DNA of 49,507 bases from an uncultured Myxococcales bacterium (GTDB lineage Bacteria > Myxococcota_A > Polyangia > Palsa-1104 > JAEUJZ01). Location of the stretch: positions 1 to 49,507 of the forward strand of contig CALLYL010000458.1 in the NCBI GenBank assembly GCA_937859535.1. The letters are read 5' to 3'. The stretch's first letter is position 1. Each line of letters starts with the position of its first letter. Shown here one piece after another: positions 29,652 through 48,118 of the stretch. The notes beneath the pieces are model-generated. The model made no database searches. It saw only the letters and a program-made list of their open reading frames with translations, and was not told the origin of the DNA. The position numbers were made by a program, and so were the translations under genes.

Positions 29652-29735
29652 GCACTGTGTAGTCTCAGTCCCCGCACACCACACCGCTACATGACCGCTA
29701 CAAGCCCATCCCGCAACCGCACACGCCTGCTTCGC

Positions 29736-32536: not shown

Positions 32537-32551
32537 CCCCCCCGCTTTCCG

Positions 32552-32822
32552 GCTTCCATTTGGAATGGAAGCCCATTCCCTGTCCGCTTTCCCGCTTCCA
32601 TCCACGATGGAACCCGTTTTCCAAGCAGAAAGGTCGTTCCATTCGCAATGGAAGCCGAGATCCTGTCCAGGATCGGGCTTCCATTCCCAATGGATCTCGA
32701 TTTCCGGTCTGGTTCCAGCCTTCCATCTGAAATGGAACCCGAATTCCGAGCGAAGCGCCCACTTCCATTCCCAATGGAACCCAGTTTCCGCCCTCCCCCT
32801 CCGATCCATTCACAATGGAAGC
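32552..32822. repeat. array of seven phased 42-bp (41-42 bp) units, each with a TTCCAT(T)-N3-(A)ATGGAA palindrome
   Basis: Palindromes lie at 32552-72, 32594-614, 32635-55, 32677-96, 32719-39, 32761-81 and 32803-22. The arms are conserved, while the central 3 nt and the roughly 21-nt inter-palindrome segments vary. Confidence 0.85.
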
Positions 32823-32837
32823 GGCTTTTTGCGCGGA

Positions 32838-32869
32838 CGCAGCCAGTTTGCGCGCTGGATTCGCGGTTT
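32838..32869. repeat. left copy of a perfect 32-bp direct repeat (CGCAGCCAGTTTGCGCGCTGGATTCGCGGTTT)
   Basis: Identical to 35064-35095. It ends 1 nt before the stop codon of the DUF4276-like gene. Confidence 0.9.
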
Positions 32870-33502
32870 CTAACCGATCTTTGGAAATCCATCCATGGAT
32901 GAAAGTGTGCTCAACGCGGCTTTCAGATCGGCCCAGAACGCCCTAAATGCCTCCAGCTCATGAAGTGCACTGAAGTCACGAATGCACTCGGCCACACGAT
33001 GCACCATGAATGCTTGTTCCTGCTTGAAACGTTTGCGGCGGCGTTGACCCAGTGTTCCGGCCGCATCCATGAGCAGCCGCTCCAGGTCCTTCTTCGGGTC
33101 GGGCAATCTCTCGATATCTCTGGTTCGTGGCAGTTCGATGGCAGTCCGACCATTGGGGTTGCCACTTGCAATCCGCAGGGCTTCCGCGTCGATCAAAAGC
33201 CACGCTTCTGTCATCCGTACCGGGATAACCGGCACAACATAGTCAACTCTTGGGACTTCCGTGCGTCTCGCTGCTAGTGGTAGCCGTTCGGCATCTCGAT
33301 GCACGAAGATCAACGCCGGTTTGTACTTGTTTCGTACATCTTCTACCGTGGCATCTACAGCGCAGCTCCCGCGATGCACAAACGGTTGGGGAGCAAAGTC
33401 TATCTGTGGAGCCAACCGTCGCAGTGACCACGATAAGATGGGCAACAGCGCACGGTCAGACGTACCGTCACCAATCAGGGCATAGTCGATAACTTGCATC
33501 AC
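32870..33502 (-). CDS. DUF4276-like protein (possible Toprim-like partner of the upstream ATPase)
   Basis: About 210 aa. YALIGDGTSDRALL, LIFVHRDAER and VIPVRMTEAWLLIDAEAL resemble my recollection of the DUF4276 consensus (..vEG.sE.., ..D.D.., ..EAWlLaD). The start overlaps the ATPase stop (GTGATG). Confidence 0.6.
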   Translation of the reverse strand: MMQVIDYALIGDGTSDRALLPILSWSLRRLAPQIDFAPQPFVHRGSCAVDATVEDVRNKYKPALIFVHRDAERLPLAARRTEVPRVDYVVPVIPVRMTEAWLLIDAEALRIASGNPNGRTAIELPRTRDIERLPDPKKDLERLLMDAAGTLGQRRRKRFKQEQAFMVHRVAECIRDFSALHELEAFRAFWADLKAALSTLSSMDGFPKIG

Positions 33503-34878
33503 TCGGCAGTTCCGATTTGGAGCGCAAGTTGTTGCCCTTTTAGGCCTTCTCCGAGCGGGGCTCCACCGAGGAAATCATAGAGGCGCTTTGGAGAGATAGC
33601 ACCATGGTCTCCACGCCACGTCCCGCTCACCGGACGAACACGAGCATGGCGTCCATCTGGTCCATCAACCGGCTCGACAAAGAGAATTTGATCCTCATCG
33701 AGCTGACGAGCGACATCGGGAGAGTGGGTATTTAGTATCACCTGGCGCAGCGGGTTATCGATGGCCACAGGCATTGATGGATCGACCGCGAAGTCACGCA
33801 GGAGCATAACCATGTCTCGTACGCGGCTTGGATGCATGCCATTTTCTGGCTCTTCCATGCACAGGACCGTACTTGACACCGGATCAAGTTGCATGGTGAC
33901 TAGCGCGAGAAACCGAAGTGTACCGTCGGATAGCGACCTTGCGCTAAGCTCTTGTGCACAACCGCCCATGCGGGCAAGCAGGACGAGCTGCTGACGTGCT
34001 TCATCTCGATCGACACGTAGAGACTTAATGTCAGGTACCAATGCAGAGAGTCGATTGGCTGCATCCTGCAGAGTCTGCCCCGGGGTTTGGTCTTCAGCCG
34101 CCAAACGCAGTAGCGTTGCGGCAATGTGCCCGCCTAGCTCATCTACACTCGAGGCCCCTCCGATCGGATCAGGAGCACGCATTGCAGAAGGTTCCAAATG
34201 AACTGCATGCCACGAAGCCATCTCGCGTCTGGCAGCAAGAACCGTTGGATACTCGGCAGCATTTGTTCCACCAACAACGGTTCTTGGTGATCGTCCGGCA
34301 GGAATGGCTCGGCCTCTGCTCCCGCCATCTTGATGAAGAGATACTACGATGGAGCCGTCAGGACGGGTCTCGGGGGAAACAAGAGGCCCAGCACGACGAG
34401 CTTTCCCCAGGACCGCTTTGCGAAACTCTGCTTCGTGTGCGAATCCAATGACTGATTTGCCATCGCTGAGCTTCAGGTTGGTGAGCTTCTCGTGTGTGAG
34501 TTCCAGGCGAGGAACGGGTACTTCGGAATAACGGAAGGCGACTTCATATCGAAGAAATCTAGCGGTCGGGTTCGCTGGTCGGCCAAAATCGTCCACGACG
34601 CTGCTCGGAACAATCATATCGGCGACAAACGACATCTCCCCCGCTGGGCCGGCTCCCCAAAAAAGATCGCGAGGACCGAAGGTTCCAAATGAGGGACTAC
34701 GCACCGCCGCAGCGGCTCTGGGTATCTCATTATCTGCCAGCAGACGGAGAAACTGTATTGCGTCGAAAACATTCGACTTCCCCACTCCGTTATGGCCCAC
34801 AAAGCACGTTAGAGGACCGAATTGCACATCGACGTCGAGCAGATTCTTGAAGCCCTTGATATGAAGCCGTAGCAGCAT
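33499..34878 (-). CDS. ABC/SMC-like AAA ATPase (AAA_15/AAA_21-like, OLD/PARIS-AriA-type N-terminus)
   Basis: MLLRLHIKGFKNLLDVDVQFGPLTCFVGHNGVGKSNVFDAIQFL is the RecF/OLD-type N-terminus, with Walker A at 34774-34797. Walker B/D-loop region LCMEEPENGMHP and H-loop VILNTHSPDV are present. Confidence 0.8.
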   Translation of the reverse strand: MLLRLHIKGFKNLLDVDVQFGPLTCFVGHNGVGKSNVFDAIQFLRLLADNEIPRAAAAVRSPSFGTFGPRDLFWGAGPAGEMSFVADMIVPSSVVDDFGRPANPTARFLRYEVAFRYSEVPVPRLELTHEKLTNLKLSDGKSVIGFAHEAEFRKAVLGKARRAGPLVSPETRPDGSIVVSLHQDGGSRGRAIPAGRSPRTVVGGTNAAEYPTVLAARREMASWHAVHLEPSAMRAPDPIGGASSVDELGGHIAATLLRLAAEDQTPGQTLQDAANRLSALVPDIKSLRVDRDEARQQLVLLARMGGCAQELSARSLSDGTLRFLALVTMQLDPVSSTVLCMEEPENGMHPSRVRDMVMLLRDFAVDPSMPVAIDNPLRQVILNTHSPDVARQLDEDQILFVEPVDGPDGRHARVRPVSGTWRGDHGAISPKRLYDFLGGAPLGEGLKGQQLALQIGTAE

Positions 34879-35063
34879 AGATTCTGACCTTACCTCGGGT
34901 TGAGGTCTTAGTAGCGGGTACCTGTATCACGAACCGAAAACAAGCTCTATCAAGTCGACGACCAACTGAGCGGCTCTGGAAGTTACTACCAGTCCGCTCA
35001 TCTGAACCTCTTTGCTGCGTCGGTTTGCCCATCCCCCGTGCAGAATCGAGCCCTGTGCGCTCC

Positions 35064-35095
35064 CGCAGCCAGTTTGCGCGCTGGATTCGCGGTTT
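35064..35095. repeat. right copy of the perfect 32-bp direct repeat
   Basis: Identical to 32838-32869. It lies 27 nt upstream of the phnW start codon. Confidence 0.9.
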
Positions 35096-35121
35096 GGGGG
35101 TGGCTATTCTCCGCTTCCAAC

Positions 35122-36291
35122 ATGGCTTCCCAACCTGATTGTGATTCTTTGGGGCGAAGTCCTCGGTTGTTTACGCCGGGGCCGCTGTCGACGACGGCTT
35201 CGGTCAAGGCGGCGATGCAGATTGACCTGGGCTCTCGCGATCCGGCGTTCCTGTCTGCGGTGGCCGAGATCTGTAGCGAGCTGCTCGCCTTGGCCCAGGT
35301 GCACGAGCCCCACTATGCCGCCATCCCGATGCAGGGGAGCGGGACGTTTGCGGTCGAAGCGACGCTGGGCTCGGTCGTGGGACAGGTCGGTTCGCTGCTG
35401 ATCTTGTCGAACGGGGCCTATGGCGACCGGCTGGCCGAGCTGGCCCGCACCCTCCAGATCCGACACATCGTGCGCCGCTTTGCCGAGACCCAGCCGCTCG
35501 ATGCCGCCGTCCTCGCCGAGGTGAAGCAAAAGGAGCCGCAGCTTACCCACCTGGCCCTGGTCCACTGCGAGACGTCGACCGGCCAGGTGAACCCCCTGCC
35601 CGCGCTGTGTGCCGCCGCCCAGCAGGCCGGGCTGTCGGTGATCGTCGATGCGATGAGCAGCTTTGGCGCGATCCCGATTCCGCTCGGCGAGCTGGGAATC
35701 GACTTCCTGGTCACGTCCCCGAACAAGTGTCTGCAAGGTGTGCCGGGCTGCGGACTGGTCCTCGCCAGACGAGCCGCCCTGCCGAGCGGACGCGCCCACA
35801 GCCTGAGTCTGGACCTCTCCGCGCAGCTTGCCGGGCTGGACAAGACCGGGCAGTTTCGCTTCACGCCGCCGACCCATGTGCTGCTGGCGCTGCGGCAGGC
35901 CCTGCGCGAGCTTTCCGCAGAGGGTGGAGTGGCCGGACGGCGCGCCCGCTATCAAGGCAACTCCGACCGGCTACACCAGGGAATGGCGGCGCTCGGATTC
36001 CGCACCTTGTTACCGCCGAGCCAGCAGAGCCCCATCATCAGCGCCTTCTACTATCCCGATGACCCGCGCTTTGACTTCCCCGCGTTCTATCAGGCGCTGA
36101 GCGCACGCCGCCTGGTCATCTATCCCGGCAAGGTCAGCAGCGCCGCCTGCTTCCGAATTGGCACGATCGGCGACCTTCACCCGCCCGACTTCACCGCGCT
36201 GCTCACCGCCATCGCCGAAGTGCTGGCCGCCCAAGGGATCGCCGTGCCGCTCGCTCTCCCCACCGCAGCCACCCCCGAGAACCGCCCATGA
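35122..36291 (+). CDS. phnW: 2-aminoethylphosphonate--pyruvate transaminase
   Basis: LFTPGPLSTTASVKAAM...MQGSGTFAVEA...SNGAYG...VHCETSTG...VDAMSSFGAIP...SPNKCLQGVPG...FRFTPPTH...YPGKVSSAACFRIG is collinear with enterobacterial PhnW as I recall it. Confidence 0.88.
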   Translation: MASQPDCDSLGRSPRLFTPGPLSTTASVKAAMQIDLGSRDPAFLSAVAEICSELLALAQVHEPHYAAIPMQGSGTFAVEATLGSVVGQVGSLLILSNGAYGDRLAELARTLQIRHIVRRFAETQPLDAAVLAEVKQKEPQLTHLALVHCETSTGQVNPLPALCAAAQQAGLSVIVDAMSSFGAIPIPLGELGIDFLVTSPNKCLQGVPGCGLVLARRAALPSGRAHSLSLDLSAQLAGLDKTGQFRFTPPTHVLLALRQALRELSAEGGVAGRRARYQGNSDRLHQGMAALGFRTLLPPSQQSPIISAFYYPDDPRFDFPAFYQALSARRLVIYPGKVSSAACFRIGTIGDLHPPDFTALLTAIAEVLAAQGIAVPLALPTAATPENRP

Positions 36292-37127
36292 CCCACAGCC
36301 CTATACGCTCCGAGTCTTCGTCGTTTGTGCCGTTACAGGCCGTGATCTTCGACTGGGCCGGGACGGTCTGCGACTTCGGCAGCCTGGCCCCGGTCCTCGC
36401 CCTACACAAGCTGTTTGCGGCACAGGGCGTCCCGATTACCGCAGCCCAGGCCCGTGGACCGATGGGGCGGGCCAAGCGGGATCACATCGCCGACATCCTC
36501 GGTCTGGCGGACGTAGCGACACGCTGGCAGCAGATCCACGGGTCGCGTCCCGGCGAGGCCGAGATCGACCGCCTGTTTGCGCAGTTTCTACCGATGCAGC
36601 TTGCCGAGCTGCGCGAGCGGACGGAGCTGATTCCCGGCGTACTGCCGATGATGGCCGAGCTGCGCAGGCGTGGGCTCAAGGTGGGTTCGACGACCGGCTA
36701 CACCGCCGAGATGATGGCCGAGCTGCGCCCCCTGGCCGCCGAGCGCGGCTATGTGCCCGACGCGGTGTGGACCGTATCCGATGTGAAAAAAGGACGCCCC
36801 GCGCCGTGGATGGCGGTGCGCTGTGCCGAGCAGCTCGGCGTGTGGCCGCTGTCCGCAATCGTCAAGGTCGGGGACACCGTGGCCGATGTCGCCGAGGGAC
36901 TCAACGCCGGAATGTGGACGGTCGCCTTCGCCCGCTGCGGCAACGAAATCGGACTCGATGAGGCCCAGCTCGCCGCCCTGCCCGCTGCCGAGCAGGAGCA
37001 GCTTGTCACCGAAGCCAGAGCCAGGCTCCGCCAAGCCGGTGCCCACTTCGTAGTCGACGGCCCCAGCGACCTAGTCGCCACCCTAGACACCCTAGAGCTA
37101 CGCCGAAGACGCGGGGATCGGCCGTAG
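36288..37127 (+). CDS. phnX: phosphonoacetaldehyde hydrolase (phosphonatase)
   Basis: AVIFDWAGTVCDFGS (HAD motif I), GSTTGY, KKGRPAPWM and GDTVADVAEGLNAGMWTV. The ATGA overlaps the phnW stop. The C-terminus ..GDRP resembles the ..GERP end I recall for PhnX. Confidence 0.88.
   Translation: MTHSPIRSESSSFVPLQAVIFDWAGTVCDFGSLAPVLALHKLFAAQGVPITAAQARGPMGRAKRDHIADILGLADVATRWQQIHGSRPGEAEIDRLFAQFLPMQLAELRERTELIPGVLPMMAELRRRGLKVGSTTGYTAEMMAELRPLAAERGYVPDAVWTVSDVKKGRPAPWMAVRCAEQLGVWPLSAIVKVGDTVADVAEGLNAGMWTVAFARCGNEIGLDEAQLAALPAAEQEQLVTEARARLRQAGAHFVVDGPSDLVATLDTLELRRRRGDRP
37105..37125. repeat. left copy of a 21-bp perfect direct repeat (GAAGACGCGGGGATCGGCCGT); native 3' end of phnX
   Basis: Identical to 40422-40442. 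It extends to 29 bp with 2 mismatches (37097-37125 vs 40414-40442). The last T is the first base of the phnX TAG stop. Confidence 0.9.
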
Positions 37128-37186
37128 CTCATGGATGACCCTTGCCGTCATCAGACGGGTATGTAAGGGTGTCGCCGAGGTGACGC

Positions 37187-37615
37187 ATGACTCGCCACTG
37201 TTGGGAACAGGCCGCACGTAGGCATGCACGGGACGCGCAGACGTTGCTCGGCGCTACGCCACCAGCCTACGAAAATGCGGACCAGCTCTACGGATACTGT
37301 GCGGACAGCGTTGTGAACATTGTTGCCGATGTCGTGAGCGAAGCCCGGGGACTGCGCTTTGCACCGACCGACAAGGTTCACATCAACGCACGATGGGCTG
37401 AGCTGGCCTCTTTCCGGCAGACTCCAAAGCTGACCGAGCATCTAAAGAACCTCCCACGAAGCAACCCGTTTTCCGACTGGCATGTCAACCAGCGCTACGC
37501 TTGTGACAACAAGATCAGCAAAGATGTCGTCGAGAAGCATAAACAGGCGGCGTCCAAGCTGCTGTCCGTGCTCGAATCGCTCCAAGTAGCTGGCATCTTG
37601 AAAAAGAGTCTGTGA
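37187..37615 (+). CDS. small alpha-helical protein, HEPN-like (tentative)
   Basis: 142 aa with GAGG upstream. WEQAARRHARDAQTLL near the N-terminus, and HVNQRYACDNKISKDVVEKHKQAASKLLSVLESL near the C-terminus, fit the classic HEPN (PF05168-type) layout (A..dL..A..LL ... RYp......a......a..i). No clear Rx4-6H motif. Confidence 0.45.
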   Translation: MTRHCWEQAARRHARDAQTLLGATPPAYENADQLYGYCADSVVNIVADVVSEARGLRFAPTDKVHINARWAELASFRQTPKLTEHLKNLPRSNPFSDWHVNQRYACDNKISKDVVEKHKQAASKLLSVLESLQVAGILKKSL

Positions 37616-37618
37616 TCT

Positions 37619-38995
37619 ATGCCCACTGCGCTTCCCACGCCCGATCCATCGCCCGTGTTGTTCGACAAGGTGCTGCCGTTAGCAGCGGCCTTCGTCTTGG
37701 AACACACGGCGGTGCTGGGTGGCCAGCCCCTGTTGGTGCGAGATGTGTATGGCTGCGTGCGGATCGCAGTGGACGACCGGGAGCAGCCGCTCTTCACGGA
37801 GTCTCTGCAAGCTACAGCGTCCCAGTTCGATCAGCTTCTGGGACGCTACAGTCCGGGCCCGGACGAAAGTGACGTGTTCCTACTGGGCTCACGACTGTTT
37901 GACCCAGAGGCGGTCTTTTCCTCCCCTGACATCTTGTCCCTTCCCGAGCAGCCAGGCGTCAGGCTCCTAGAGCGGCAGATCACCGGACAAGACTGGCTCC
38001 GCCCCCCGCTATCCGCTCCACCGCAGTCGGGGAGTCCACAGCCACGTCGAGCAACCCTGTACGGAGTGAAGGGCGGTGTGGGACGGTCGACCGCGCTGGC
38101 CATCTGGGCAAAGCATCTGGCCGAAGTGCGAGGCAAACGCGTGCTGGTGGTCGATTTGGATCTGGAATCGCCCGGGATCAGCTCGATCCTGCTGCCGCCC
38201 GGACGGAGTCCTGATTTTGGCTTGGTCGACTACCTGATTGAAGAAGGCGTCGGACAGGGTGCCGTGATTCTTCCTCATATCTGCGCATCCAGCCCGTTTG
38301 CCGAGGGTTCACGCGGAGAAATCGTGGTGGTGCCGACTCATGGGGAAGCGCCCGGCGACTACCTGGCGAAGCTCAGCCGCATCTATCAGGGCATCCCGGA
38401 TGGCCCGCCAGACTTCGCGTCGCGAATCTTCCTGGCCCTTATGAAGCTCGAAGAGCAGGTGAGGCCAGATGTGGTGCTCCTCGATAGTCGAGCAGGGCTG
38501 CACGACATCGCGGCCATGGCCATCACCCGACTGGATGCGCTGGCACTGCTGTTCGCGGTCAATACACCGCAGACCATGACGGGCTATCAGCTTCTGTTTG
38601 ACAGCTTCCGCCGTCATCCCGAGCGCCTGCTGAGCTACCGCAACAATCTACAAGCCGTCGCTGCGCTCGTTCCAGATACCAATCGTCCCGAATATATGCG
38701 CTCGCTTCAGACGCGCCTGTACGATCTGTTTTCCAGGTCTGTGTACGAGTCCGAGCCTGAGCCAGACAAAGACTCACCGACCGATGATTGGACCGCCGAG
38801 TGTCACGAGGTCTGGAACTACTCGCTTGATGACTCCGACGCTCCGCATCAGCCGATCCCGATTCGCTGGTATCGGTGGTTCCTCGACTTCGATCCCGTGA
38901 ATCAGCCGGAGGCCTTTGCGAAGGCTGAGGTTGAGGCCGCGTACGGCGACTTCACCAAAAGAGCCACGGAACTCCTGCTGGACAGAGCCGGTTAA
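37619..38995 (+). CDS. ParA/MinD-like P-loop ATPase with KGGVGR Walker A variant and unknown ~145-aa N-terminal domain
   Basis: Deviant Walker A LYGVKGGVGRSTAL (38069-38092), in which the signature Lys is kept and the P-loop Lys is Arg. Switch I-like VLVVDLDLESPG and Walker B VVLLDSRAGLHD are present. The start lies 3 nt after the upstream stop. Confidence 0.75.
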   Translation: MPTALPTPDPSPVLFDKVLPLAAAFVLEHTAVLGGQPLLVRDVYGCVRIAVDDREQPLFTESLQATASQFDQLLGRYSPGPDESDVFLLGSRLFDPEAVFSSPDILSLPEQPGVRLLERQITGQDWLRPPLSAPPQSGSPQPRRATLYGVKGGVGRSTALAIWAKHLAEVRGKRVLVVDLDLESPGISSILLPPGRSPDFGLVDYLIEEGVGQGAVILPHICASSPFAEGSRGEIVVVPTHGEAPGDYLAKLSRIYQGIPDGPPDFASRIFLALMKLEEQVRPDVVLLDSRAGLHDIAAMAITRLDALALLFAVNTPQTMTGYQLLFDSFRRHPERLLSYRNNLQAVAALVPDTNRPEYMRSLQTRLYDLFSRSVYESEPEPDKDSPTDDWTAECHEVWNYSLDDSDAPHQPIPIRWYRWFLDFDPVNQPEAFAKAEVEAAYGDFTKRATELLLDRAG

Positions 38996-38998
38996 ACC

Positions 38999-40423
38999 AT
39001 GGACTCCCGAACGTTTCGCTCGGCCTTCTTGAGCGCGATCCCCGCCCAAAACATCGGAGTGCCAGAGGCCAAGTACCTCTACATTCCGAAGACCCACCTG
39101 CGTGCGCTCCACCCGGACCATGCCCTGGTGCGGGGGATTCGCGGCGCGGGCAAGAGCGTCTGGTGGTCGGTCTTGCAGTTCGAGGACCTAAGCTGGCTCC
39201 TCAAGCAGATCTTCCCCTCCGCGATGATGCCGACGAGCATCGAGGTGAAGCCCGGCTTCGGCGAACAATTAAATCCGCAAGCATATCCGGGCCGCGACAC
39301 CTTGGAGCTGCTGCTAACGTCACATCAGCCTCGGCTGATCTGGCGAACGGTTGTGCTGTGGGGAGTTCGAGCCATTCCGGAACATCTCGAAACCTGGACG
39401 GACCGGGTAGGCTGGGTGGCGCAGAATCCAGAGCTAGCGGAACGAAACCTCAGTACGGCGCATCAGCAGATGGCCCAGAAGCAGACGCTGGGGCTGTTTG
39501 TCTTCGATGCACTCGACCGCACTGCCACAACGTGGGACAGCAGGGCCAGGCTGCTCGATGGTCTGCTGGAAAACCTGCTCGAGTTTCGGTCTTTCCGGTT
39601 CATTCGCCTCAAGGCGTTTGTTCGGCCCGACATGCTGGTGGGACCAGAGATCGGACGCTTTCCCGATGCCTCGAAAGTGCTGACGGGTGCGATTGACTTG
39701 TCTTGGCCGCGAGCACAGCTCTTTGGACTCCTGTGGCAGTACCTGCTCAATGCGCCCACTGCCGAGGGGCAGCCGGGATTTCGCGAGCTGTGCAAGCAGG
39801 TATTCCACCAACGCCTGGGGCTGCACGAGGGCGTCTGGCACGGCTCGGACGAGATGAACACGGACGAAGAGACCCAGCGGTCGATCTTCGAGGTGCTCGC
39901 CGGGGAGTTTATGGGGAGCAATCGGCTTCGTGGCTATCCCTACACCTGGTTGCCGAACCACCTGGCCGATGCCTATGGTCAGGTGAGTCCGCGCTCGTTT
40001 CTGGCCGCGCTGCGAGAAGCCGCCGAAGACACGGACCGCTGCTACCCGCAGCACCCGCAGGCCCTTCACTATGAAGCGCTCAAGCGTGGTGTCCAAAAGG
40101 CCTCGCAGATCCGCGTGGAAGAGTTCGAGGAAGACTTCCCATGGATTCGCGAGGTCATGAAGCCGCTCAAGGAATTAACGGTTCCCTGCTCGCTGACTCA
40201 GATCGACGAGCGATGGGTCAAGGCCAAGCTCAAGCAGAAACTCGGTGAGCAGCGTCAAGGCGTACTACCAGGCCGCTCCAATGATTTTTCAGCAGGTCTT
40301 ATCGAACAGCTTACGTCGGTAGGCATTTTCTCGCGCATGCCAGACCAGCGAATCAACCTGCCGGATGTCTATCGAGTGGGATTTGGCTTAAAGCGGCTCG
40401 GTGGCGTGAAGCCGCTGCGCTGA
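38999..40423 (+). CDS. uncharacterised P-loop NTPase
   Basis: Walker A GIRGAGKS (39134-39157) near the N-terminus and a Walker B-like LGLFVFDALDR. The long C-terminal region matches no family I recognise. The start lies 3 nt after the upstream stop. Confidence 0.7.
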   Translation: MDSRTFRSAFLSAIPAQNIGVPEAKYLYIPKTHLRALHPDHALVRGIRGAGKSVWWSVLQFEDLSWLLKQIFPSAMMPTSIEVKPGFGEQLNPQAYPGRDTLELLLTSHQPRLIWRTVVLWGVRAIPEHLETWTDRVGWVAQNPELAERNLSTAHQQMAQKQTLGLFVFDALDRTATTWDSRARLLDGLLENLLEFRSFRFIRLKAFVRPDMLVGPEIGRFPDASKVLTGAIDLSWPRAQLFGLLWQYLLNAPTAEGQPGFRELCKQVFHQRLGLHEGVWHGSDEMNTDEETQRSIFEVLAGEFMGSNRLRGYPYTWLPNHLADAYGQVSPRSFLAALREAAEDTDRCYPQHPQALHYEALKRGVQKASQIRVEEFEEDFPWIREVMKPLKELTVPCSLTQIDERWVKAKLKQKLGEQRQGVLPGRSNDFSAGLIEQLTSVGIFSRMPDQRINLPDVYRVGFGLKRLGGVKPLR

Positions 40424-40442
40424 AGACGCGGGGATCGGCCGT
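40422..40442. repeat. right copy of the 21-bp direct repeat (duplicated phnX 3' end)
   Basis: Identical to 37105-37125. It begins inside the TGA stop (40421-23) of the third cassette gene. Confidence 0.9.
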
Positions 40443-40469
40443 CGTCACCGCTGGTCTCCGCACCAAGAC

Positions 40470-42179
40470 TTACTGTTGAATCGGTCTCCCAAAGAAGTAC
40501 AGCTGGCCAGGTCGGTAGGCTACCGATTCACGACTCTCCAGAAACTTCTGCGCACTGGCAGCCGCCATCTGGGGGTCGAAGCCTTCCGACGTTTCCCAGT
40601 CGGAGCAGTTGATACCCGTGGAAGCCTCAAACCTCTGGCGCAAGTCGACGGTAAGCTCGGGCCCATATTTGAGGTCGATGATCTCGCGGGCGAGCGCGAT
40701 CACACCAAACAGACCGCCGCGAAAGATAGGTACATCTTCCCGACCAAGCCGTTGAGACAACGCTTGATAGCAAATGGTGGTCTTCTCGCAACAGGCCTGA
40801 CACCCGATAGGTTGGTGGGGTCCATGCCGCACCGCCTGAAACGCGAACATCTGGTTTAGTCTACTTTCCAAATGAGCATACTTGGGGTTGTTGGCGTTTC
40901 GGCGGTAGGCCTCTAGTACGAGTGGGACATCGCAAAGCATGCTGCGGCGAAGGAGCCCCCAGCACAGCGAATAGGTCAGGTCGGGTGACGCCCCCCGACG
41001 GATTGTTTCTCGCCAGGGATCGAGGACGCAGTCATCTGCTGCGTCTGCGATCAGGTCAATGGCGGCACGTTGGAACATCGGCTCATTGTCCTTGCCGATC
41101 AAGGCAGACAAACCCTCTAGCGGAGTACGATTGCCCGACATCGCTGCACGAAGGCAGGTGTGCAGGGAAAGCCAGGGCCAGTCTCGATGAATCGTCAGCG
41201 CTGCTGAAGGTGGAGGCGTTGTCGACCGAACAAAGTACCCACCTCGGAACGGCTCGAAGCCGAGAGGTAGGGCGAAGTAGTCGTCCACATCGAAGATCGT
41301 GCGCACCTCAGGCACATCCATTCCTCGATTGGGTGGGTACGCCGCGAAAATCTGCGCAGCAGATCCGACATCTTCGATAAAGTGGCCCATAAAAATGTGC
41401 TGGCCGACTGGGTAGCCGTTGGCCTTCCCAGATTCATGGAAGAGCTCAAGATCCGCCCTGGCTTGGAGCAAGTTGACTTTGCCATGGGTGAACCACTTGC
41501 TGCATGACAGTCCCGTGGTCACCTCGAATTTGTGGCGATCGTCTGGATCCAACAAGCCCTTGCGAAGATCCTTCAGCATCGCCGTCACGAGGGATCCAAG
41601 CGCAAATGCGCGGCCACGGTAGACATGGATCAGATTGGTTCCGAGTTCGTTCCATAGACGGAAGTAGCGCTCCGCAACCGCCGTCCGATACTCTTCCCAT
41701 TGCTCCTCTGGAGGCGCGGATAAGGACTCCTCGGCAGGCTTGGTAAGAAGCCAGTCCAGCATCATAGGAATGCTGTCGGAGTCGGTGTGTCTCCGGTTCA
41801 TCTCATAGAACCGGAACAACACCGGAACATCCGCCAGTCGCCCTCTCGCAGCCAACGCGGTGACGATATCTAGACCGCGATCGAATGAGGTACTCTTCTG
41901 AAGAGTAAGAACCAGGGCTTCAAGATCGGCTGCGGTTCCGGCGTCTGCCACCACGCTACAAGCGACGCCGTGAAGTTCAGTATCGCGAGTTTGCCCGATG
42001 AGTTCCCTCACTACCTGGCTCACCAGCCCAAATGCTCCGTGGCGTGCTTGCGTGATGGTGGCCCTTAGTAGGCCCCATTCGTCACGGGGAGCAGGGTGGC
42101 GTGCAGCCTGTTGTAAGTCCTCGGCAGGGAATGCGTCGTAGCCTGCGCCGTACCAGTCAAACGAACGTTCATCATCCAT
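40470..42179 (-). CDS. internally duplicated hypothetical protein; candidate immunity protein for the adjacent DUF4150 toxin
   Basis: It lies 5 nt downstream of the toxin gene on the same strand. The two halves are homologous (YRGRAFALGSLVTAMLKDLRKGLLDPDDRHKFEVTTGLSCSKWFT vs FRGGLFGVIALAREIIDLKYGPELTVDLRQRFEASTGINCSDWET). Confidence 0.55.
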   Translation of the reverse strand: MDDERSFDWYGAGYDAFPAEDLQQAARHPAPRDEWGLLRATITQARHGAFGLVSQVVRELIGQTRDTELHGVACSVVADAGTAADLEALVLTLQKSTSFDRGLDIVTALAARGRLADVPVLFRFYEMNRRHTDSDSIPMMLDWLLTKPAEESLSAPPEEQWEEYRTAVAERYFRLWNELGTNLIHVYRGRAFALGSLVTAMLKDLRKGLLDPDDRHKFEVTTGLSCSKWFTHGKVNLLQARADLELFHESGKANGYPVGQHIFMGHFIEDVGSAAQIFAAYPPNRGMDVPEVRTIFDVDDYFALPLGFEPFRGGYFVRSTTPPPSAALTIHRDWPWLSLHTCLRAAMSGNRTPLEGLSALIGKDNEPMFQRAAIDLIADAADDCVLDPWRETIRRGASPDLTYSLCWGLLRRSMLCDVPLVLEAYRRNANNPKYAHLESRLNQMFAFQAVRHGPHQPIGCQACCEKTTICYQALSQRLGREDVPIFRGGLFGVIALAREIIDLKYGPELTVDLRQRFEASTGINCSDWETSEGFDPQMAAASAQKFLESRESVAYRPGQLYFFGRPIQQ

Positions 42180-42184
42180 CGGAC

Positions 42185-43270
42185 TTATCCCAACTTCTGG
42201 AAGTCAGTAAATTCGGCTTCCAGTTTCTTACAGGCTGGACACAATTTCTTGTCGAGGGTCAAGTTCCCCTGACCCGTAGGGCATCCACCGGCACTTTTGG
42301 GGGTGAGGTGGTTCACTTGATCATCCTCTTCCATCTCTCTCAGAGGCGGAATACGGTCTGCACTGGCTTTTTGTTGCTGCGCTTTCCTGTAGTTTCGCCA
42401 TTTGCTATCGATGCTTTTATGCTGCTTCTGACGCTCGTCACCCTTGGACGGTTGTTTATGGTAGACATCGCAAGGAGGACTAGGGGCAACCGGAGGGCAA
42501 CCACAGCTTTTGGCAGCTACTGCTTTGCGGCTTAACTCTTTGTACTCTCTCAGCTTTTTGTCACGCCAGGCGTTCTGTTCAGCGAGTTCGGCTTCTTTTT
42601 TAGCAAGCTTGAATCCGGCGGCAGTGATTGCATCAGCGTCCCCACCCTTCAGCGCGTTCGCCAGCGCCTGCTTGTTCGCGTCGATGCCCTTCTGAATGCC
42701 TTGGCTTCTGCGCGCAGACTCCTCTTGGATATTGTCCTCATACCACTCATCACGATGCATATCTGCGCCATCGGAATGCTGAGGGCCGTTGCAGCAGGCG
42801 CACTTCTTGTCTGCGATGGCTTGGGTGGCAGCAGCCTGCATTTCAGCATTGGGGAAAGGTGGCGTGCTGCCCGGATAGCTGGCGTGATTGCTGGTGGTGA
42901 GGTCGAGATGCCGGCAGACATTCTTGCCCTCGACCATCACGTCCATCGAGTGGGCCGCAAAGTAGGTCTTGCCCGAGATGGTATGGGTGATCACTGCGCC
43001 ACCAAAGTTGCGGGTCGCCGCTTCATTTCCCAAGGGAGAGGACTGATAAAAGCTCTGTCCCTTGAGAGCGAGCGGCTTGACGCCAATCTTCACGGTCGTG
43101 CTTCCGTCCTGTAGATCCTTGGCAAACGACGTGTTGGGATACGGCACTGGCACGGGCCCGGCGGGCGGCGGCGGTGGGCTCAGACACACATCGGGAAACG
43201 CGGCCAGCACTTTGCCATCGCCCGCCTTGTGGGCGATCTCCATGTTGTTAGCGAACACGTTTTTGCCCAT
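42185..43270 (-). CDS. DUF4150 (PAAR-like) T6SS effector with HNH/EndoVII-like C-terminal toxin motif
   Basis: The N-terminal MGKNVFANNMEIAHKAGDGKVLAAFPDVCLSPPPPPAGPVPVPYPN...MVEGKNVCRHLDLTTSNH is typical DUF4150. The C-terminal VNHLTPKSAGGCPTGQGNLTLDKKLCPACKK fits the HNH pattern (H...GG....NL..L C..C). AGGAG lies upstream. Confidence 0.7.
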   Translation of the reverse strand: MGKNVFANNMEIAHKAGDGKVLAAFPDVCLSPPPPPAGPVPVPYPNTSFAKDLQDGSTTVKIGVKPLALKGQSFYQSSPLGNEAATRNFGGAVITHTISGKTYFAAHSMDVMVEGKNVCRHLDLTTSNHASYPGSTPPFPNAEMQAAATQAIADKKCACCNGPQHSDGADMHRDEWYEDNIQEESARRSQGIQKGIDANKQALANALKGGDADAITAAGFKLAKKEAELAEQNAWRDKKLREYKELSRKAVAAKSCGCPPVAPSPPCDVYHKQPSKGDERQKQHKSIDSKWRNYRKAQQQKASADRIPPLREMEEDDQVNHLTPKSAGGCPTGQGNLTLDKKLCPACKKLEAEFTDFQKLG

Positions 43271-43284
43271 GTGGATGCGCTCCT

Positions 43285-44307
43285 CTACTGAACGCTGGTG
43301 AATACGACGGCGGCGCGAGCACCTTGTTCGTTACCAGCACAGGCCAACGCTCGCGGACCGGGTGCATACTGTCGTTGCCAGGCAGCCATGGCCCACAGCA
43401 GGCTGCATAGCCCTGCGGCGGCTCCGGTATCACCCAACGACTCTGCGGGGAGCCAGAGCGGGAAGTCGGGCTTCCGTTCAAGAAGCAGCCGAGACACGAG
43501 CAGCGCTTGCTCTTTGAAGTGGAAGCTCTCGCCTGCGGCATCGGACAGCCGGAAGTCGAGGTCGTGCAGCTGCAAGCTGGCCTCCGACAGCGCCGCACGG
43601 ACTGCGGCAATCAGTCCATCCGCACGCAACGGGATCTCGTTGCCAAGAAGCGACGGCTCCGTTGCAAACCCGACCCCACAGAGTTGAGCGAGCGCGTCGC
43701 GGCTGTCTTGGCTGAGCATCAGCGCGGCAGCGGCCTCGCCCGGAATCAGTCCGTCGGAGTTGCCTTCCACGATCAAGCGGTCCTGCTCCGCCAGTGGGAG
43801 CAGCCTCCACGCAGAGAGCAAGGAGTCGGCTGCCGCTACGACACACGGCACGCCAGCACGGACGCTCGCACGGCCCAGATCGAGCGCCAGGTAACCACCG
43901 CAGGCACCTCCTGTCAGGAGGTGGAGGTTGTCCGGCGAAAGCTGTAGGCCGAGCGTTCGGGACAACGCTTCACAAGCAAACGCAGCAGAGTAAGCTTGGC
44001 CACCGCGTGCCGGTGGAAGTGTCAGAAACAACGGCATCCGCTGGAGCACCACTGGTCCACCCCGGTGTCGTGTGACGTCTCGCAGCGCGTGGGTGAGCAG
44101 AAACAGCCACCGCTCCTCATACGAGGAATCCTCGGACAGCAAGTCGCGTAGAGAGGACGCGACGATCTCTCGACCTTGGTTGTCACGGTATGCAGAACTG
44201 CTCTTGCGCGTGATCCCGGCACGCATGGCCGCGCAGGCGCAAGCCCAAGTCATGCCAACCGGACAGGCCAGCCCTGCGGCACTCACGTAGACTGGTGCAG
44301 ACGTCAT
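43285..44307 (-). CDS. thiolase-fold / beta-ketoacyl-synthase-like protein (degenerate)
   Basis: PVYVSAAGLACPVG, a Cys-containing LTGGACGGYLALDLG and the C-terminal ACAGNEQGARAAVVF resemble KAS N-terminal, nucleophile and C-terminal Gly-rich segments. The ATGA overlaps the DUF2169 stop (44304-44307). Confidence 0.5.
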   Translation of the reverse strand: MTSAPVYVSAAGLACPVGMTWACACAAMRAGITRKSSSAYRDNQGREIVASSLRDLLSEDSSYEERWLFLLTHALRDVTRHRGGPVVLQRMPLFLTLPPARGGQAYSAAFACEALSRTLGLQLSPDNLHLLTGGACGGYLALDLGRASVRAGVPCVVAAADSLLSAWRLLPLAEQDRLIVEGNSDGLIPGEAAAALMLSQDSRDALAQLCGVGFATEPSLLGNEIPLRADGLIAAVRAALSEASLQLHDLDFRLSDAAGESFHFKEQALLVSRLLLERKPDFPLWLPAESLGDTGAAAGLCSLLWAMAAWQRQYAPGPRALACAGNEQGARAAVVFTSVQ

Positions 44308-45419
44308 GATCGTCCTTCGCGGCGCTGGCGGAGCCACCGGATGGCATCGGCCAGCCCTGCAAAGCGGGGCTTTCCGTTGCGGTAACCGACGGGTCGACGG
44401 CCCTCACAGAGGGGCAGATCGCCCACCAACACGTCCCGCAGCGCTGTCAGTTTCTTACGCAACGGGACGCTGGCGCGCCAGACCAGCGTGGCCCGGAACA
44501 GGTGTGGTTCCAGGATGACAGTGTCGAGCACGGCAGTACGCTCCGCTTCGGCATCACAGAAACGAAACCGCACAGGTACGGTCCACGAAGGAAGGACGTA
44601 CTCGACCAGCTCTTGCTCGGCCATGTGTATGCAGCAGATCCGCTCACCGCCTTGGAAGTGGGGAAATTGCTGGTCCAGCGGCGCGCACTGAAAGTAGTGC
44701 GTATCGAAGTCTGCGGGCAGGTACGGCGCTCGCTCGTCGCGCCAGCGCTTGTCGTAGGTACCCGCCAACGTCACACGCGGCTGCCAGGCTCGACCCACAC
44801 AGCCAAAACCCACCGGCTCGTGGTGATCACGCGGGGACGCAATGGCACGCCCGAGCTGCTCAATGTTGGGGACGGGCAGACCGGCCATGCGGGCGCGGCT
44901 ACGATGCGGATGGAAGCCGACGCCGACCGGATTGCGCGGCTCGACCACCACTTGGTCGGGCCCTCGGCTGTCGTCGAACCCACCCCAGGCGCGGTCGAAG
45001 GTGATGGGGATTTCCGCAAAAGGGACCGGGTCGCTGATCCCCACCATACCCAGCGTCGTGGTCCAGCACCGATCACCATAGACCGTCAGCTCTTTGCGTC
45101 GCCCCTGCACCTCCAACCGTACAGCCAGCTTCGTGACACACCGCCCTGGTGGCGCGACCGCCTTGCCGACCACGATCACATCGGTTTGCGGCTTCTCTAG
45201 CGCGAAATCACTTTCGTAGCGCACGCAGGTAAAGGCGGGATCGCCGTAGTGCTCGTCAGCGGTCACCAGTGGCTGCTGTGCTTCGACAAGCGTCATCGCG
45301 CCGCCTGCACTGGTTTGGAAGGTGCCCTTGATCACCACCACACAGTGGTCGCACGCGTCCTTGTCGGTGGCGACCGTCAGCCCGGCCAGCATGCCCGTCG
45401 TATTCGCAGTGATGTGCAT
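44304..45419 (-). CDS. DUF2169 domain protein (T6SS effector adaptor/chaperone family)
   Basis: VVVIKGTFQ...LVTADEHYGDP...VRYESDFALEKPQTDVIVVGKAVAP...LTVYGDRCW follows the DUF2169 N-terminal consensus as I recall it. Confidence 0.75.
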   Translation of the reverse strand: MHITANTTGMLAGLTVATDKDACDHCVVVIKGTFQTSAGGAMTLVEAQQPLVTADEHYGDPAFTCVRYESDFALEKPQTDVIVVGKAVAPPGRCVTKLAVRLEVQGRRKELTVYGDRCWTTTLGMVGISDPVPFAEIPITFDRAWGGFDDSRGPDQVVVEPRNPVGVGFHPHRSRARMAGLPVPNIEQLGRAIASPRDHHEPVGFGCVGRAWQPRVTLAGTYDKRWRDERAPYLPADFDTHYFQCAPLDQQFPHFQGGERICCIHMAEQELVEYVLPSWTVPVRFRFCDAEAERTAVLDTVILEPHLFRATLVWRASVPLRKKLTALRDVLVGDLPLCEGRRPVGYRNGKPRFAGLADAIRWLRQRREGRS

Positions 45420-45471
45420 AACTCGGTGGTCGGCTGCTAAGCGTCACCGCTTTCAGCACCGCACAAGCACA

Positions 45472-45501
45472 CGCATAGTGAATCACCTTGCGCCTTGTCA
45501 A
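45472..45501 (-). promoter_or_regulatory. sigma70-like promoter candidate for the DUF2169 operon
   Basis: The minus strand reads TTGACA (45501-45496)-N18-TATGCG (45477-45472), about 50 nt upstream of ATG 45419. The -10 is weak. Confidence 0.25.
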
Positions 45502-45504
45502 GGA

Positions 45505-45530
45505 GGTGCCCCCCGAACGGAGGGAGCACC
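45505..45530 (-). terminator. terminator-like hairpin downstream of the DEAD-box helicase
   Basis: The minus strand reads GGUGCUCCC-UCCGUUCG-GGGGGCACC, a 9-bp stem including one G-U pair. It lies 36 nt after the TAA stop (45566-68) and is followed only by a short UCCUU. Confidence 0.4.
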
Positions 45531-45565
45531 ACGAGACAAACGCCAGGGAAACGACGGAACCGTAG

Positions 45566-48118
45566 TTATTTGCGGGCGCGTTCGCAGACGACGGCGCGGG
45601 TGCCGAGCGGCTTGCCGGACAGGGCGACGATGGTGGGCTCTACTTGTTCCTCGGGGACGAACAGGTAGGCGTGCGAGCTGTGCAGCTCCATCGGGATCTC
45701 TGACACGCCTTGGGCGGCTACAAACTGCCGCAGGCCGGTATCATCGAGGTTGTCGCGACGACCGACGTTGAGGTACAGGCGAACCTCACCGGGGCTTGGC
45801 GGTCGACTGTCCCGCAGCGGGCGGCGCGGGCGACGATCGCCACCGTCATCGGTAGCGGGCACCTCGCCACCACGGGCGGCGGGTTCCGTCGAGGGCGCAT
45901 CGCTCGGCTTGGAGGTCTTGGCGCGGGCATCGGCCCAGGCTTCCCAGAACTCGCGGCCGTCATCGGTATGGATGATGTCGGTCGGCGTGCCCGCCGGCGT
46001 CCCGATTGGGGCTTGCACCTGAGCGGGCTCAGCGCTGCGCTCGCCCGGCTCATCACGACGAGGTCCACGGCCTCGGTCCCGATCCCCATCGCGACGACGG
46101 TCATCGCGACCCGGACGCCGGTCATCACGACCCCGCCGGTCCTCGTCACGAGCTGGTCGCCGATCATCGCGAGGACGACGATCCTCACCAACATTACGGC
46201 TGTCGCCCCCGCGACCCGGTCCTTCGGGGCGGAGAATAGCACCTTCCGAGCGCGGGGCTGGCGCTTCCGTTCGTGGGGCAGGAGCTTCGGGACGCAGTAC
46301 GGGTGCTTCGGCTCTCGGTGCGGGTGCTTCGGCTCGGGGCGCGGGTGCTTCGGCTCGGGGGGCTGGAACCTCTGGGCGCGGCGCGGGTGCTTCGGCTCTC
46401 GGCGCAGCAACTTCTGGACTGCGCACGGGCGCGGGCCGGGCCGGACGACCGGCGTCATCACGCGGACGGCGATCGTCTTCACGCGGGCGGCGATCGTCCT
46501 CACGCGGGGGCCGCCGTTCGGTCGGGCGAGACGGTCCCTCCCCACCGCCCTGTGGCGGATGAGTGGGACGCGAGGGACGGTGGTTTAGGTGCTGCTCCAG
46601 CAGCATCGCCAGCACCGATTCCCCCGATTCACTCGCCAGCAGCCGCCGGAGCAGCGAGCGGTACTCGGGCCCCGGATTCTTGCTGCCGAGATCCTTGTGC
46701 AGCCGGTCCATGAACTGACCCTCGCGCAGCGTCTGCACCTCGGCCTCGGTCGGCAGAGCGCGCTCCTCGGGGCGAATCTTGTAGGTCAGCTTGAGGTAGT
46801 AGAAGTTCCCCAGCTCTCGCGGGCTGATGAGCGACACCGCGATGCCGCGCTTGCCCGCCCGTCCGGTGCGACCCGTGCGGTGGACGTAGACCTCGGCGGA
46901 CTCGGGGAAGGTGTAGTTGATGACAAACGGCAGGTCGGAGATGTCGATTCCGCGAGCTGCGACATCGGTGGCGCACAGGAACTTGAGATCCTTGGCCTTC
47001 ATCCGCTTCATCACCCGCTCGCGCTCGGTCTGGTTCAGATCCGACGAGATGGGCTCGGCGTCATGGCCGTTGTTGCGCAGGAACTCGGCAACGGCGGACG
47101 TCTCTTCGCGGGTGTTGCAAAAGATGATCGCGCTCTCGGGACGCTCGATCTCGATGACGCGCAGCAGGTCGCGCATCCGGCCCATGCCGGTGACCATGTA
47201 GTAGGCATGGACGATCTCGGCAGCCGAGATGCCCTCGCCCGATAGATGGATGTTGAGCGGCGAGCGCAGGTAGCGGTGCTGCAGGCGCAGCACTTCATCG
47301 GGAATCGTCGCCGAAAACAGCAGCGTCTGTCGCTCGGGCGGGCAGCGCTTCAGGATCTCGGTGATGTCTTCGAGGAAGCCCATCGACAGCATCTCGTCGG
47401 CTTCATCGAGCACCAGCGCCTTGACCTTCGACAGGTTCAGGGTGCCGCGTCGGATGTGATCGAGCACGCGGCCCGGCGTACCGGACACCAGGTGGGCACC
47501 GGCCTTGAGCGCGTCGACCTGACGACCCATCGGCGCACCACCGTAAATGGCGGTGATCGACAACTGCCGTTTGGCGGCGATGCGACCAATCTCGTTCGAG
47601 ACTTGCAGCGCCAGCTCGCGGGTCGGTCCGAGCGCCAGCACCTGCGGGAAGCCGTTTCGGACATCCGCCTTCGGATCGAGAATCGACTGCACAAACGGAA
47701 TGCCAAAGGCCGCCGTCTTTCCCGAACCAGTACGGGACTGAACAATCAGGTCGCGCCCGGCAATCGCGGGTCGGTACACCCGCTGCTGGACCGGCATCGG
47801 CTCGGAAAAGCCCATGTCGCGCAGGGAGCTGGCCACGTCCTCGGACAGGCCCATCTCTTCGAAGGTGCGCGGACAGGGACCGTAGTCGGCTTCAGTCAGC
47901 TCGCTTTTGGCGATGGCAGGAGGAGCGGCAGAGGTGAGCGCGGCACCTGTGGGCGGCTGGGCATGCACAATGGCAGCCTGCACAGGGACAGCTTCGGACG
48001 CAGCGCTATCGGTCAGGGCCGAAGCAGTGATGGACGATGAAACGGGGGCGGAGGCTTGGGCCTCTGCTGCGCCAGCGAGCAGCGTCTTGCTGTCGCTCGG
48101 CGAACCAGTATCTTGCAT
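45566..48118 (-). CDS. DEAD-box ATP-dependent RNA helicase with repeat-rich linker and DbpA-like C-terminal RNA-binding domain
   Basis: Q-motif region, motif I SRTGSGKT, Ia PTRELA, II DEAD (VLDEADEM), III SAT and VI HRTGRTGRAG. The C-terminal VRLYLNVGRRDNL...GKPLGTRAV resembles the DbpA domain. AGAGG lies upstream of ATG 48118. Confidence 0.9.
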   Translation of the reverse strand: MQDTGSPSDSKTLLAGAAEAQASAPVSSSITASALTDSAASEAVPVQAAIVHAQPPTGAALTSAAPPAIAKSELTEADYGPCPRTFEEMGLSEDVASSLRDMGFSEPMPVQQRVYRPAIAGRDLIVQSRTGSGKTAAFGIPFVQSILDPKADVRNGFPQVLALGPTRELALQVSNEIGRIAAKRQLSITAIYGGAPMGRQVDALKAGAHLVSGTPGRVLDHIRRGTLNLSKVKALVLDEADEMLSMGFLEDITEILKRCPPERQTLLFSATIPDEVLRLQHRYLRSPLNIHLSGEGISAAEIVHAYYMVTGMGRMRDLLRVIEIERPESAIIFCNTREETSAVAEFLRNNGHDAEPISSDLNQTERERVMKRMKAKDLKFLCATDVAARGIDISDLPFVINYTFPESAEVYVHRTGRTGRAGKRGIAVSLISPRELGNFYYLKLTYKIRPEERALPTEAEVQTLREGQFMDRLHKDLGSKNPGPEYRSLLRRLLASESGESVLAMLLEQHLNHRPSRPTHPPQGGGEGPSRPTERRPPREDDRRPREDDRRPRDDAGRPARPAPVRSPEVAAPRAEAPAPRPEVPAPRAEAPAPRAEAPAPRAEAPVLRPEAPAPRTEAPAPRSEGAILRPEGPGRGGDSRNVGEDRRPRDDRRPARDEDRRGRDDRRPGRDDRRRDGDRDRGRGPRRDEPGERSAEPAQVQAPIGTPAGTPTDIIHTDDGREFWEAWADARAKTSKPSDAPSTEPAARGGEVPATDDGGDRRPRRPLRDSRPPSPGEVRLYLNVGRRDNLDDTGLRQFVAAQGVSEIPMELHSSHAYLFVPEEQVEPTIVALSGKPLGTRAVVCERARK
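46254..46405. repeat. seven tandem 21-bp coding repeats (7-aa APAPRAE-type units) inside the helicase gene
   Basis: The units GGGTGCTTCGGCTC(T/G)(C/G)GG(T/C/G)GC at 46301, 46322, 46343 and 46385 are nearly identical. The copies at 46254, 46275 and 46364 are degenerate. Confidence 0.8.

Follow-up and report, generated by a model that had tools for sequence, protein, structure and literature searches.

In a 49,507-nucleotide stretch of DNA from an uncultured Myxococcales bacterium (contig CALLYL010000458.1; the whole stretch is called the window below), we found that PDC-M28, a candidate defence cassette of three genes, has been inserted at the 3′ end of phnX, the gene for phosphonoacetaldehyde hydrolase. 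In the process the last 23 bp of phnX were duplicated, and both phnX and the convergent helicase gene beside it remained intact. The feature is a new and well-resolved case of something already known, namely a defence islet without a recombinase at a chromosomal hotspot, and not a new mobile element. A module of type VI secretion system (T6SS) effector genes entered the same phnX/helicase junction as a separate event.

The insertion is marked by a perfect 21-mer, GAAGACGCGGGGATCGGCCGT, which has two copies on the + strand (37105-37125 and 40422-40442) and stretches to 29 bp with 2 mismatches (37097-37125 and 40414-40442), just as a first-pass annotation of this DNA had reported. No third copy was found in the 49.5-kb window, even with 3 mismatches allowed, and two matches were seen in 0 of 100 dinucleotide-preserving shuffles (shuffle expectation 0.01); within the window the 21-mer is thus not frequent. 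The left copy consists of the last phnX codons (..LELRRRRGDRP), with TAG at 37125-37127, and the right copy starts within the TGA of the last cassette gene (38999-40423), the codon phase being equal in both (CTA CGC CGA on the left, CTG CGC TGA on the right). Identical junctions recur in over 10 assemblies made independently in several studies, indicating that they are not an assembly artefact, and the alignment of empty with filled alleles is exact to the base. These observations, together with the shuffles and the copy number, already refute the idea that the repeat arose by chance, belongs to a dispersed family or comes from a chimeric assembly, an idea with virtually no chance of being right. 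The features of the junction are as follows.

36288..37127, + strand: phnX (phosphonoacetaldehyde hydrolase), intact, 279 aa, ends ..RRRRGDRP-TAG; NCBIfam TIGR01422, 330 bits vs cutoff 220
37105..37127, + strand: left, native copy of the target duplication; last 7 phnX codons and TAG
37128..37186, + strand: cassette leader, 59 bp; GAGG 7 nt before the M28A ATG
37187..37615, + strand: PDC-M28A, 142 aa; PADLOC PDLC04558, E = 1.9e-26
37619..38995, + strand: PDC-M28B, ParA/MinD-like ATPase with a KGGVGR-motif variant; PADLOC PDLC04559, E = 5.7e-127
38999..40423, + strand: PDC-M28C, P-loop NTPase of Sll1717/KAP/NACHT-like type; PADLOC PDLC04561, E = 2.2e-164
40414..40442, + strand: right junction; M28C 3′ end, then duplicated phnX tail
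40443..45559, - strand: T6SS effector module, a second and nested insert; L004 and L008 lack exactly this segment
45560..45575, no strand: original junction CCGTAG|TTATTTGCGG, the phnX stop remnant abutting the helicase stop; true native right flank
45566..48118, - strand: DEAD/Helicase_C helicase (Pfam), 850 aa, native convergent neighbour of phnX

Empty and filled alleles of the phnX/helicase junction

The annotation took the left copy of the repeat for the native end of phnX and the right copy for a duplicated target, and comparison with relatives agreed with it on both points: relatives at 74-95% PhnX identity share the ..RRRRGDRP-TAG terminus, and empty sites hold one copy of the repeat only. 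In the sister lineage (~94% nucleotide identity; L158 from GCA_044228505.1, and L160-162) the TAG of phnX is followed directly by TTATTTGCGGGCGCG and the helicase. In L011, L110 and L111 (74-78% PhnX identity) TAG|TTA is likewise flush, L110 and L111 carrying a truncated helicase-tail remnant there. Since the flush TAG|TTA is found in close and distant relatives alike, we infer that the ancestral state is a pair of genes, phnX and the helicase, converging stop-to-stop with zero spacer. The annotation had also expected phnX in relatives to continue into the sequence from 40443 onward. Empty sites, however, continue at 45560 onward, with the helicase stop, so that 40443-45559 is a second insert.

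Contigs with identical PhnX fall into three haplotypes, and most of these contigs equal the window. In L004 and L008, PDC-M28 is followed directly by the helicase, so that these contigs correspond to the window minus 40443-45559. Their right junction, GCTGCGCTGAAGACGCGGGGATCGGCCGTAG|TTATTTGCGGGCGCG, reads ..CCGTAG|TTATTTGCGG, and the repeat in this M28-only haplotype is thus 23 bp including TAG, as compared with 21 bp in the window. The third haplotype, L009, has no M28 and reads ..GGCCGTAG TTATTTGCGG|AGGGACGG, after which comes a variant of the T6SS module with the end ..GACGGAA|CCGTAGTTATTTGCGGGCGCG.

The annotation had further counted the 8-bp imperfect extension of the right copy as duplicated phnX. 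This part proved to be the native 3′ end of M28C (..KPLR*): 40414-40423 (GCTGCGCTGA) matches phnX GCTACGCCGA at 8/10 positions, and the C-terminus ..GGVKPLR* is conserved, 15/15 aligned homologues (down to 47% identity) ending ..GGVKP[LVI]R*, arguing that GCTGCGCTGA is cassette sequence and not derived from phnX. The probability of at least 8/10 matches in fixed register between the M28C end and phnX is ~6e-4, and the right M28 joint is best read as having formed at extended microhomology. What follows, 40422-40442, is a duplicated phnX tail, now a non-coding relic. In L102, a contig of the window-type haplotype, the right repeat copy (within 10880-10960) bears a 5-bp deletion (ATCGG), which fits the expectation for a functionless relic. 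A hairpin that the phnX tail could form (CTACGCCGA-N11-TCGGCCGTAG) would be a conceivable reason for breakage at this place, but the native-context fold was no better than that of shuffles (z = 0.61).

Several further observations concern these genes. In L106 (1451-8023; 95% identical PhnX) other cargo follows TAG|TTATCTGCGG, with genes for two proteins of 220 and 215 aa, for a protein kinase of 512 aa and for an FG-GAP protein. The joint on the left is similar to the one in L009, and the duplicated helicase stop is reused by the first open reading frame (ORF). The helicase gene holds seven tandem 21-bp units at 46222-46431, which form a heptapeptide repeat, and members of the helicase cluster range from 843 to 878 aa, perhaps reflecting the copy number of this repeat. 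In L165, phnX up to window position 36919 is fused in frame to an OmpA-like C-terminus, probably as a metagenomic chimera.

The PDC-M28 cassette, its age and its recurrence

Judged by profile matches, 37128-40421 is a complete PDC-M28 A/B/C candidate defence cassette (PADLOC). Its three genes are adjacent and co-oriented in the order A-B-C, that of the PADLOC system, and match the A, B and C models end to end, with near full-length profile coverage (PADLOC-DB v2.0.0). No terminator-like site was found between phnX and the leader at their boundary, and the leader is 93% identical in the sister-lineage copy, L159. M28A has no recognisable domain, with nothing significant in Pfam or PDB; its assignment as Smr-like was rejected because the PDB match was too weak (E = 0.12). 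M28B scores 176 bits vs a cutoff of 90 against NCBIfam NF047398 and has weak ParA/MinD matches in PDB. M28C scores 47.7 bits against NCBIfam NF047389, under the cutoff, and its similarity to Sll1717 and NACHT is weak.

Homologues of M28C are common in metagenomes (1864 matches at E <= 1e-20) and occur on 23 plasmids; no match was found in phage genomes. On the Sphaerotilus sulfidivorans plasmid NZ_CP035707.1 (L164, 3083-6362) a PDC-M28-like trio lies between pglX and DUF6079/pglZ of BREX-2, and on an Enterobacter IncF plasmid the trio adjoins a tyrosine recombinase gene and a TIR protein. It is this association, with BREX-2 and TIR neighbours, that points to PDC-M28 as a candidate anti-phage system. 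The GC content of the M28 cassette (0.58-0.63), and that of the T6SS and HEC-01 inserts (~0.56; HEC-01 is described below), contrasts with that of phnWX and the helicase (0.65-0.69), which counts for a foreign origin of the inserts. No publication on PDC-M28 or the KGGVGR ATPase was found in the literature library searched.

The cassette is also present in the sister lineage, at the equivalent junction (TAG|TTCATGG..) in L159. Between L159 and the window it is 92-93% identical, as compared with 93.4-94.4% for phnW, phnX and the helicase; the cassette is thus as diverged as its flanking genes, indicating that the insertion predates the split of the lineages. Both lineages hold alleles with and without the cassette. 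Such a pattern might arise if the cassette were excised between the repeats as a circle and re-entered conspecific chromosomes by a single crossover in the 23-bp phnX tail. Traffic of this Campbell type would account for the polymorphic presence of the cassette in both lineages, where empty sites are perfectly restored, and for repeats that have stayed perfect despite the age of the insertion; in addition, at 23-40 bp the repeats come close to the shortest length for RecA-dependent exchange. It leaves the first insertion unexplained, however, and phnX would lose its stop (GGCCGT|CGTCACC) if excision took place between the 21-bp copies of the window haplotype. Moreover, the identical cassette was found at one locus only, and exchange via kilobases of flanking homology would be far more efficient and explains the same pattern. 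We therefore consider this traffic quite improbable.

The annotation had suggested a search for the same cassette at other loci with similar flanking duplications. The identical cassette was found at the phnX/helicase locus only, whereas some other PDC-M28 loci are bracketed by repeats. Among ~12 metagenomic PDC-M28 loci with enough flank, two more independent ones, L132 and L119, have target-derived repeats. In L132, PDC-M28 lies in a 33-bp perfect repeat; a reading in which this repeat covers the start codon of the neighbouring gene was rejected, as that frame has 12 stop codons and the repeat is intergenic. L119 (451-6002; also L118 and L120) shows the same duplicated-gene-tail layout in an unrelated genome: a full N6_N4 DNA methylase gene is followed by PDC-M28 and a RelE-like remnant, and after these the 3′ end of the methylase gene is repeated as a fragment of ~230 bp with 89% identity. 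In control windows of the same geometry, an exact repeat of at least 16 bp was present in 8 of 260 random windows. These data lend modest support to insertion with duplication as the usual arrival route of the PDC-M28 cassette. The three repeat-bearing PDC-M28 loci in unrelated metagenomic genomes, together with two cassettes that end at a stop codon, are also the basis for a further reading, namely that an undescribed dedicated pathway, intrinsic to the cassette or acting in trans, moves compact defence cassettes flush to gene boundaries and leaves duplications of 16 to ~230 bp. We give this reading little credence.

The nested T6SS module and the edge upstream of phnW

The insert at 40443-45559 comprises four genes.

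40470-42179, - strand: 569-aa protein, part of the T6SS module
42185-43270, - strand: Tox-PAAR-like effector (Pfam/NCBIfam)
43285-44307, - strand: KAS-like protein (Pfam/NCBIfam)
44304-45419, - strand: DUF2169 protein (Pfam/NCBIfam), with a 140-bp leader after it

The 569-aa protein has no match in Pfam, NCBIfam or PADLOC. The L009 variant of the module agrees with that of the window in the upstream genes and the N-terminal PAAR part (from position 42858) and has, at L009 2063-3521, a swapped toxin C-terminus and a 268-aa downstream gene, a putative immunity gene. This swap of toxin C-terminus and downstream gene is the usual polymorphic-toxin pattern. In L009 the module is flanked by a 16-bp direct repeat, CCGTAGTTATTTGCGG, that spans both stop codons. 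In the window the module meets the right M28 repeat at CCGT|CGTCACC, the AG of the relic TAG being gone, and its right junction is identical to that of L009; its left joint possibly formed at the microhomology CCGT. A T6SS haplotype of the 569-aa type without M28 was not found, the 569-aa gene adjoining M28 in 10/10 contigs. Upstream of the DUF2169 gene, 45424-45470 resembles 40426-40469, with a degenerate third phnX tail and ~27 bp of similarity (CGTCACCGCT..CCGCAC.AAG). This likeness, which is suggestive only, may be an older decayed duplication.

At the other edge of phnWX the annotation had noted a second repeat pair and concluded that both edges are insertion hotspots. Our comparison leads to the same conclusion: the upstream edge is empty or carries HEC-01 or a PARIS-like pair, and the downstream edge is empty or carries M28, T6SS, M28 with T6SS, or other cargo. 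The features of the upstream edge are listed below.

32830..32869, + strand: left copy of a 40-bp target duplication (32 bp perfect); single copy in the empty site L148
32870-33502, - strand: HEC-01 B; PADLOC E = 1e-25
33499-34878, - strand: HEC-01 A; PADLOC E = 1.8e-89
35056..35095, + strand: right copy of this 40-bp repeat, just ahead of phnW
35122..36291, + strand: phnW (2-aminoethylphosphonate--pyruvate transaminase); NCBIfam PRK13479, 449 bits vs cutoff 296

Gene callers place the start of phnW at 35122 or 35215, the ATG at 35122 being likely. The HEC-01 cassette, a candidate defence pair, extends to 35055 with a 177-bp upstream region and is absent from L148 and L158. L148 (GCA_009612975.1), with its single 32-mer, is 99.6% identical to the window from phnW onward and 97.7% identical upstream. 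The two 40-bp copies differ by 3 nt (GGA vs TCC), and both variants are native alleles in relatives, indicating that both copies are target sequence. At the HEC-01 site, L091 (5084-7305), and also L093 and L098, carry a PARIS-like AriA/AriB pair (AAA_21 and DUF4435) in the opposite orientation, with 29 bp of the 40-bp target stretch deleted and no repeat. In L158, a 1.6-kb extra segment replaces 12 bp, again with no repeat.

Just upstream of this phnW-proximal hotspot lies an array of seven TTCCAT-N5-ATGGAA palindromes (32554-32820; 41-42 bp spacing), which occur in the window only there (shuffle expectation 0.1) and are conserved in the sister lineage. The array could be operator or iteron-like, and is possibly a replication obstacle. 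In L110 (78% PhnX identity) phnW comes directly after a 200-aa gene beside M16 peptidase and YhbY genes. By comparison, the window holds ~8.5 kb extra at 26650-35100 (GST, FG-GAP, a helix-turn-helix methyltransferase, two small ORFs and HEC-01), and the variable region upstream of phnW is thus far larger than the HEC-01 islet.

Route of insertion and relation to known systems

The annotation read the repeat as the signature of site-specific insertion at a gene 3′ end by a cassette that carries no recombinase. We, too, could not detect a recombinase in the cassette, and in tested ORFs of at least 130 aa across the 49.5 kb no integrase, recombinase or transposase domain was found. Window scans gave no Cas1, the 49.5 kb had no tRNA or Rfam match, and no inverted repeat pair was present at 37128/40421 or 32870/35055. 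The 23-mer and the 32-mer had no exact match in 2.9 million viral contigs, plasmids and integrative and conjugative elements not having been searched for either. An integron attC site was likewise absent: the M28C stop overlaps the repeat, so that no 3′ non-coding stretch exists, there is no integrase, and in the attC test the fold of the M28 junction was no better than that of shuffled sequence (z = 0.22).

Site-specific insertion itself was not supported. An identical flanking core, as in site-specific elements, is present (21 bp in the window, 23 bp in L004), but it is not shared across independent insertions, the 23 bp of M28 and the 16 bp of T6SS overlapping in CCGTAG only. The change to the target differs with each event: +23 for M28, +16 for T6SS (L009), +40 for HEC-01, -29 for the PARIS-like pair (L091) and -12 for the L158 segment. 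Including the other PDC-M28 loci, the repeat lengths are 16, 23, 33, 40 and ~230 bp and do not represent a fixed-length target-site duplication. These differing repeats, together with the losses of target sequence, speak against both a site-specific enzyme and a fixed-stagger transposase.

The same observations bear on a cis-mobilisable element, in which the 23-bp repeat would be attL/attR, the phnX 3′ end attB, and a tyrosine or serine recombinase would act in trans. The repeat is of att-like length and rebuilds the phnX 3′ end, one junction has taken up several different cargoes, and the M28 homologue on the Enterobacter plasmid lies next to a tyrosine recombinase gene. Such an element is nonetheless unlikely, given the lack of a recombinase in the 49.5 kb and of viral matches to the 23-mer and 32-mer, the merely partial overlap of the M28 and T6SS repeats (AGACG..CCGTAG vs CCGTAG..GCGG), and an upstream site where one haplotype has 40 bp duplicated and another has lost 29 bp. 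There is also no space for attP arms, with 0 bp past the M28C stop and 59 bp ahead of M28A, and the right joint falls within the conserved coding end of M28C. We find it barely credible that a trans-acting transposase-like enzyme with long staggered cuts (casposon-like or other) made the repeat as a true target-site duplication. The repeats do lie exactly at the edges of the inserts and occur at three independent PDC-M28 loci, but their lengths vary, terminal inverted repeats, transposase and Cas1 are missing, and one event at the same spot removed target sequence.

We think it probable, though by no means certain, that the cassettes arrived by recombinase-independent illegitimate insertion with variable target duplication, and were then spread and lost by homologous recombination. 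Foreign DNA, possibly from a plasmid, would have been joined by end joining or template switching, and extended microhomology would have served for at least one joint, that at the right end of M28. The two target breakpoints would fall independently, giving either an overlap (16-40 bp duplication) or a gap (12-29 bp deletion). At the phnX/helicase junction only overlapping events would spare both genes, and selection would retain those alone: with zero spacer, non-overlapping breakpoints would truncate phnX or the helicase, which may be why duplications only are seen at this junction. The same filter would explain why duplication and deletion are both seen in the intergenic region upstream of phnW. 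Once in place, the cassettes would behave as alleles of the locus, inherited vertically and exchanged via homologous recombination in the flanking genes, and a cassette could be lost precisely through recombination between its repeats. Integration of heterologous DNA by annealing at microhomologies, including extended ones with mismatches, has been described (bioRxiv 10.1101/2023.11.22.568220); a microhomology route for heterologous DNA is also attributed to Hulter & Wackernagel 2008 where that work is cited in PMC12359135.

Several points weigh against illegitimate insertion. Clear microhomology is present at 1 of ~8 junctions, the others looking blunt. Compared with the illegitimate events so far described in bacteria, duplications of 16-40 bp (~230 bp in L119) are long. 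Two cassettes stop exactly at a stop codon, which chance explains poorly. The donor locus was not observed, and a recombinase encoded elsewhere in the genome, beyond the sequenced stretch, might act in trans. The pathway may have been annealing akin to double illegitimate recombination (DIR) or its short-patch form (SPDIR), capture by non-homologous end joining at staggered nicks, or template switching.

Among known processes, double illegitimate recombination, SPDIR and homology-facilitated illegitimate recombination of Acinetobacter baylyi resemble the events described here in their microhomology joints with mismatches and variable target outcome. One homologous anchor and one illegitimate joint would be in line with the left joint of the window T6SS module (CCGT) taken together with its right junction, which L009 has too. 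SPDIR events have been described as microindels of 3 to ~100 bp (bioRxiv 10.1101/2023.11.22.568220), however, whereas here the segments are 2-5 kb long, microhomology is missing from most joints and long stretches of target are duplicated. The locus is like tyrosine-recombinase islands at gene 3′ ends in having a repeat that rebuilds the target 3′ end and in the tandem accretion of cargo. It is unlike them in that there is no recombinase and there are no att arms, the repeats vary with each event and a joint lies in the coding end of the cargo.

Hotspots, in the summary of Oliveira et al. 2017 given in PMC12359135, are the few intervals between persistent genes that hold alternative accessory cargo. 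The junctions studied here are like hotspots and defence islands, as summarized there, in their alternative cargo for defence and interbacterial competition and in recombination in the flanking genes. They differ from those summarized accounts in that boundaries are resolved to the base with empty alleles, events are nested and targets duplicated, and the lineage is uncultured and seen in metagenomes only. A literature search for defence islets with duplicated gene ends found nothing.

The minimal mobile elements of Neisseria are whole-gene cassettes without mobility genes that lie between conserved genes and are exchanged by homologous recombination. To our knowledge, they have not been described with target duplications, unlike the locus studied here.

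The phnX/helicase locus is a base-resolved natural case of defence genes entering a chromosome, and persisting there, without mobility genes, with empty, singly, doubly and alternatively filled alleles all in one population. It defines a minimal transferable unit of the candidate PDC-M28 system, consisting of the 59-bp leader and three genes. The presence/absence polymorphism is older than the ~6% nucleotide split between the lineages and fits long-term maintenance or repeated loss of defence cargo. The convergent junction with zero spacer would act as a filter that passes only insertions with target duplication, so that duplicated gene tails could be used to search other genomes for islets that lack a recombinase.

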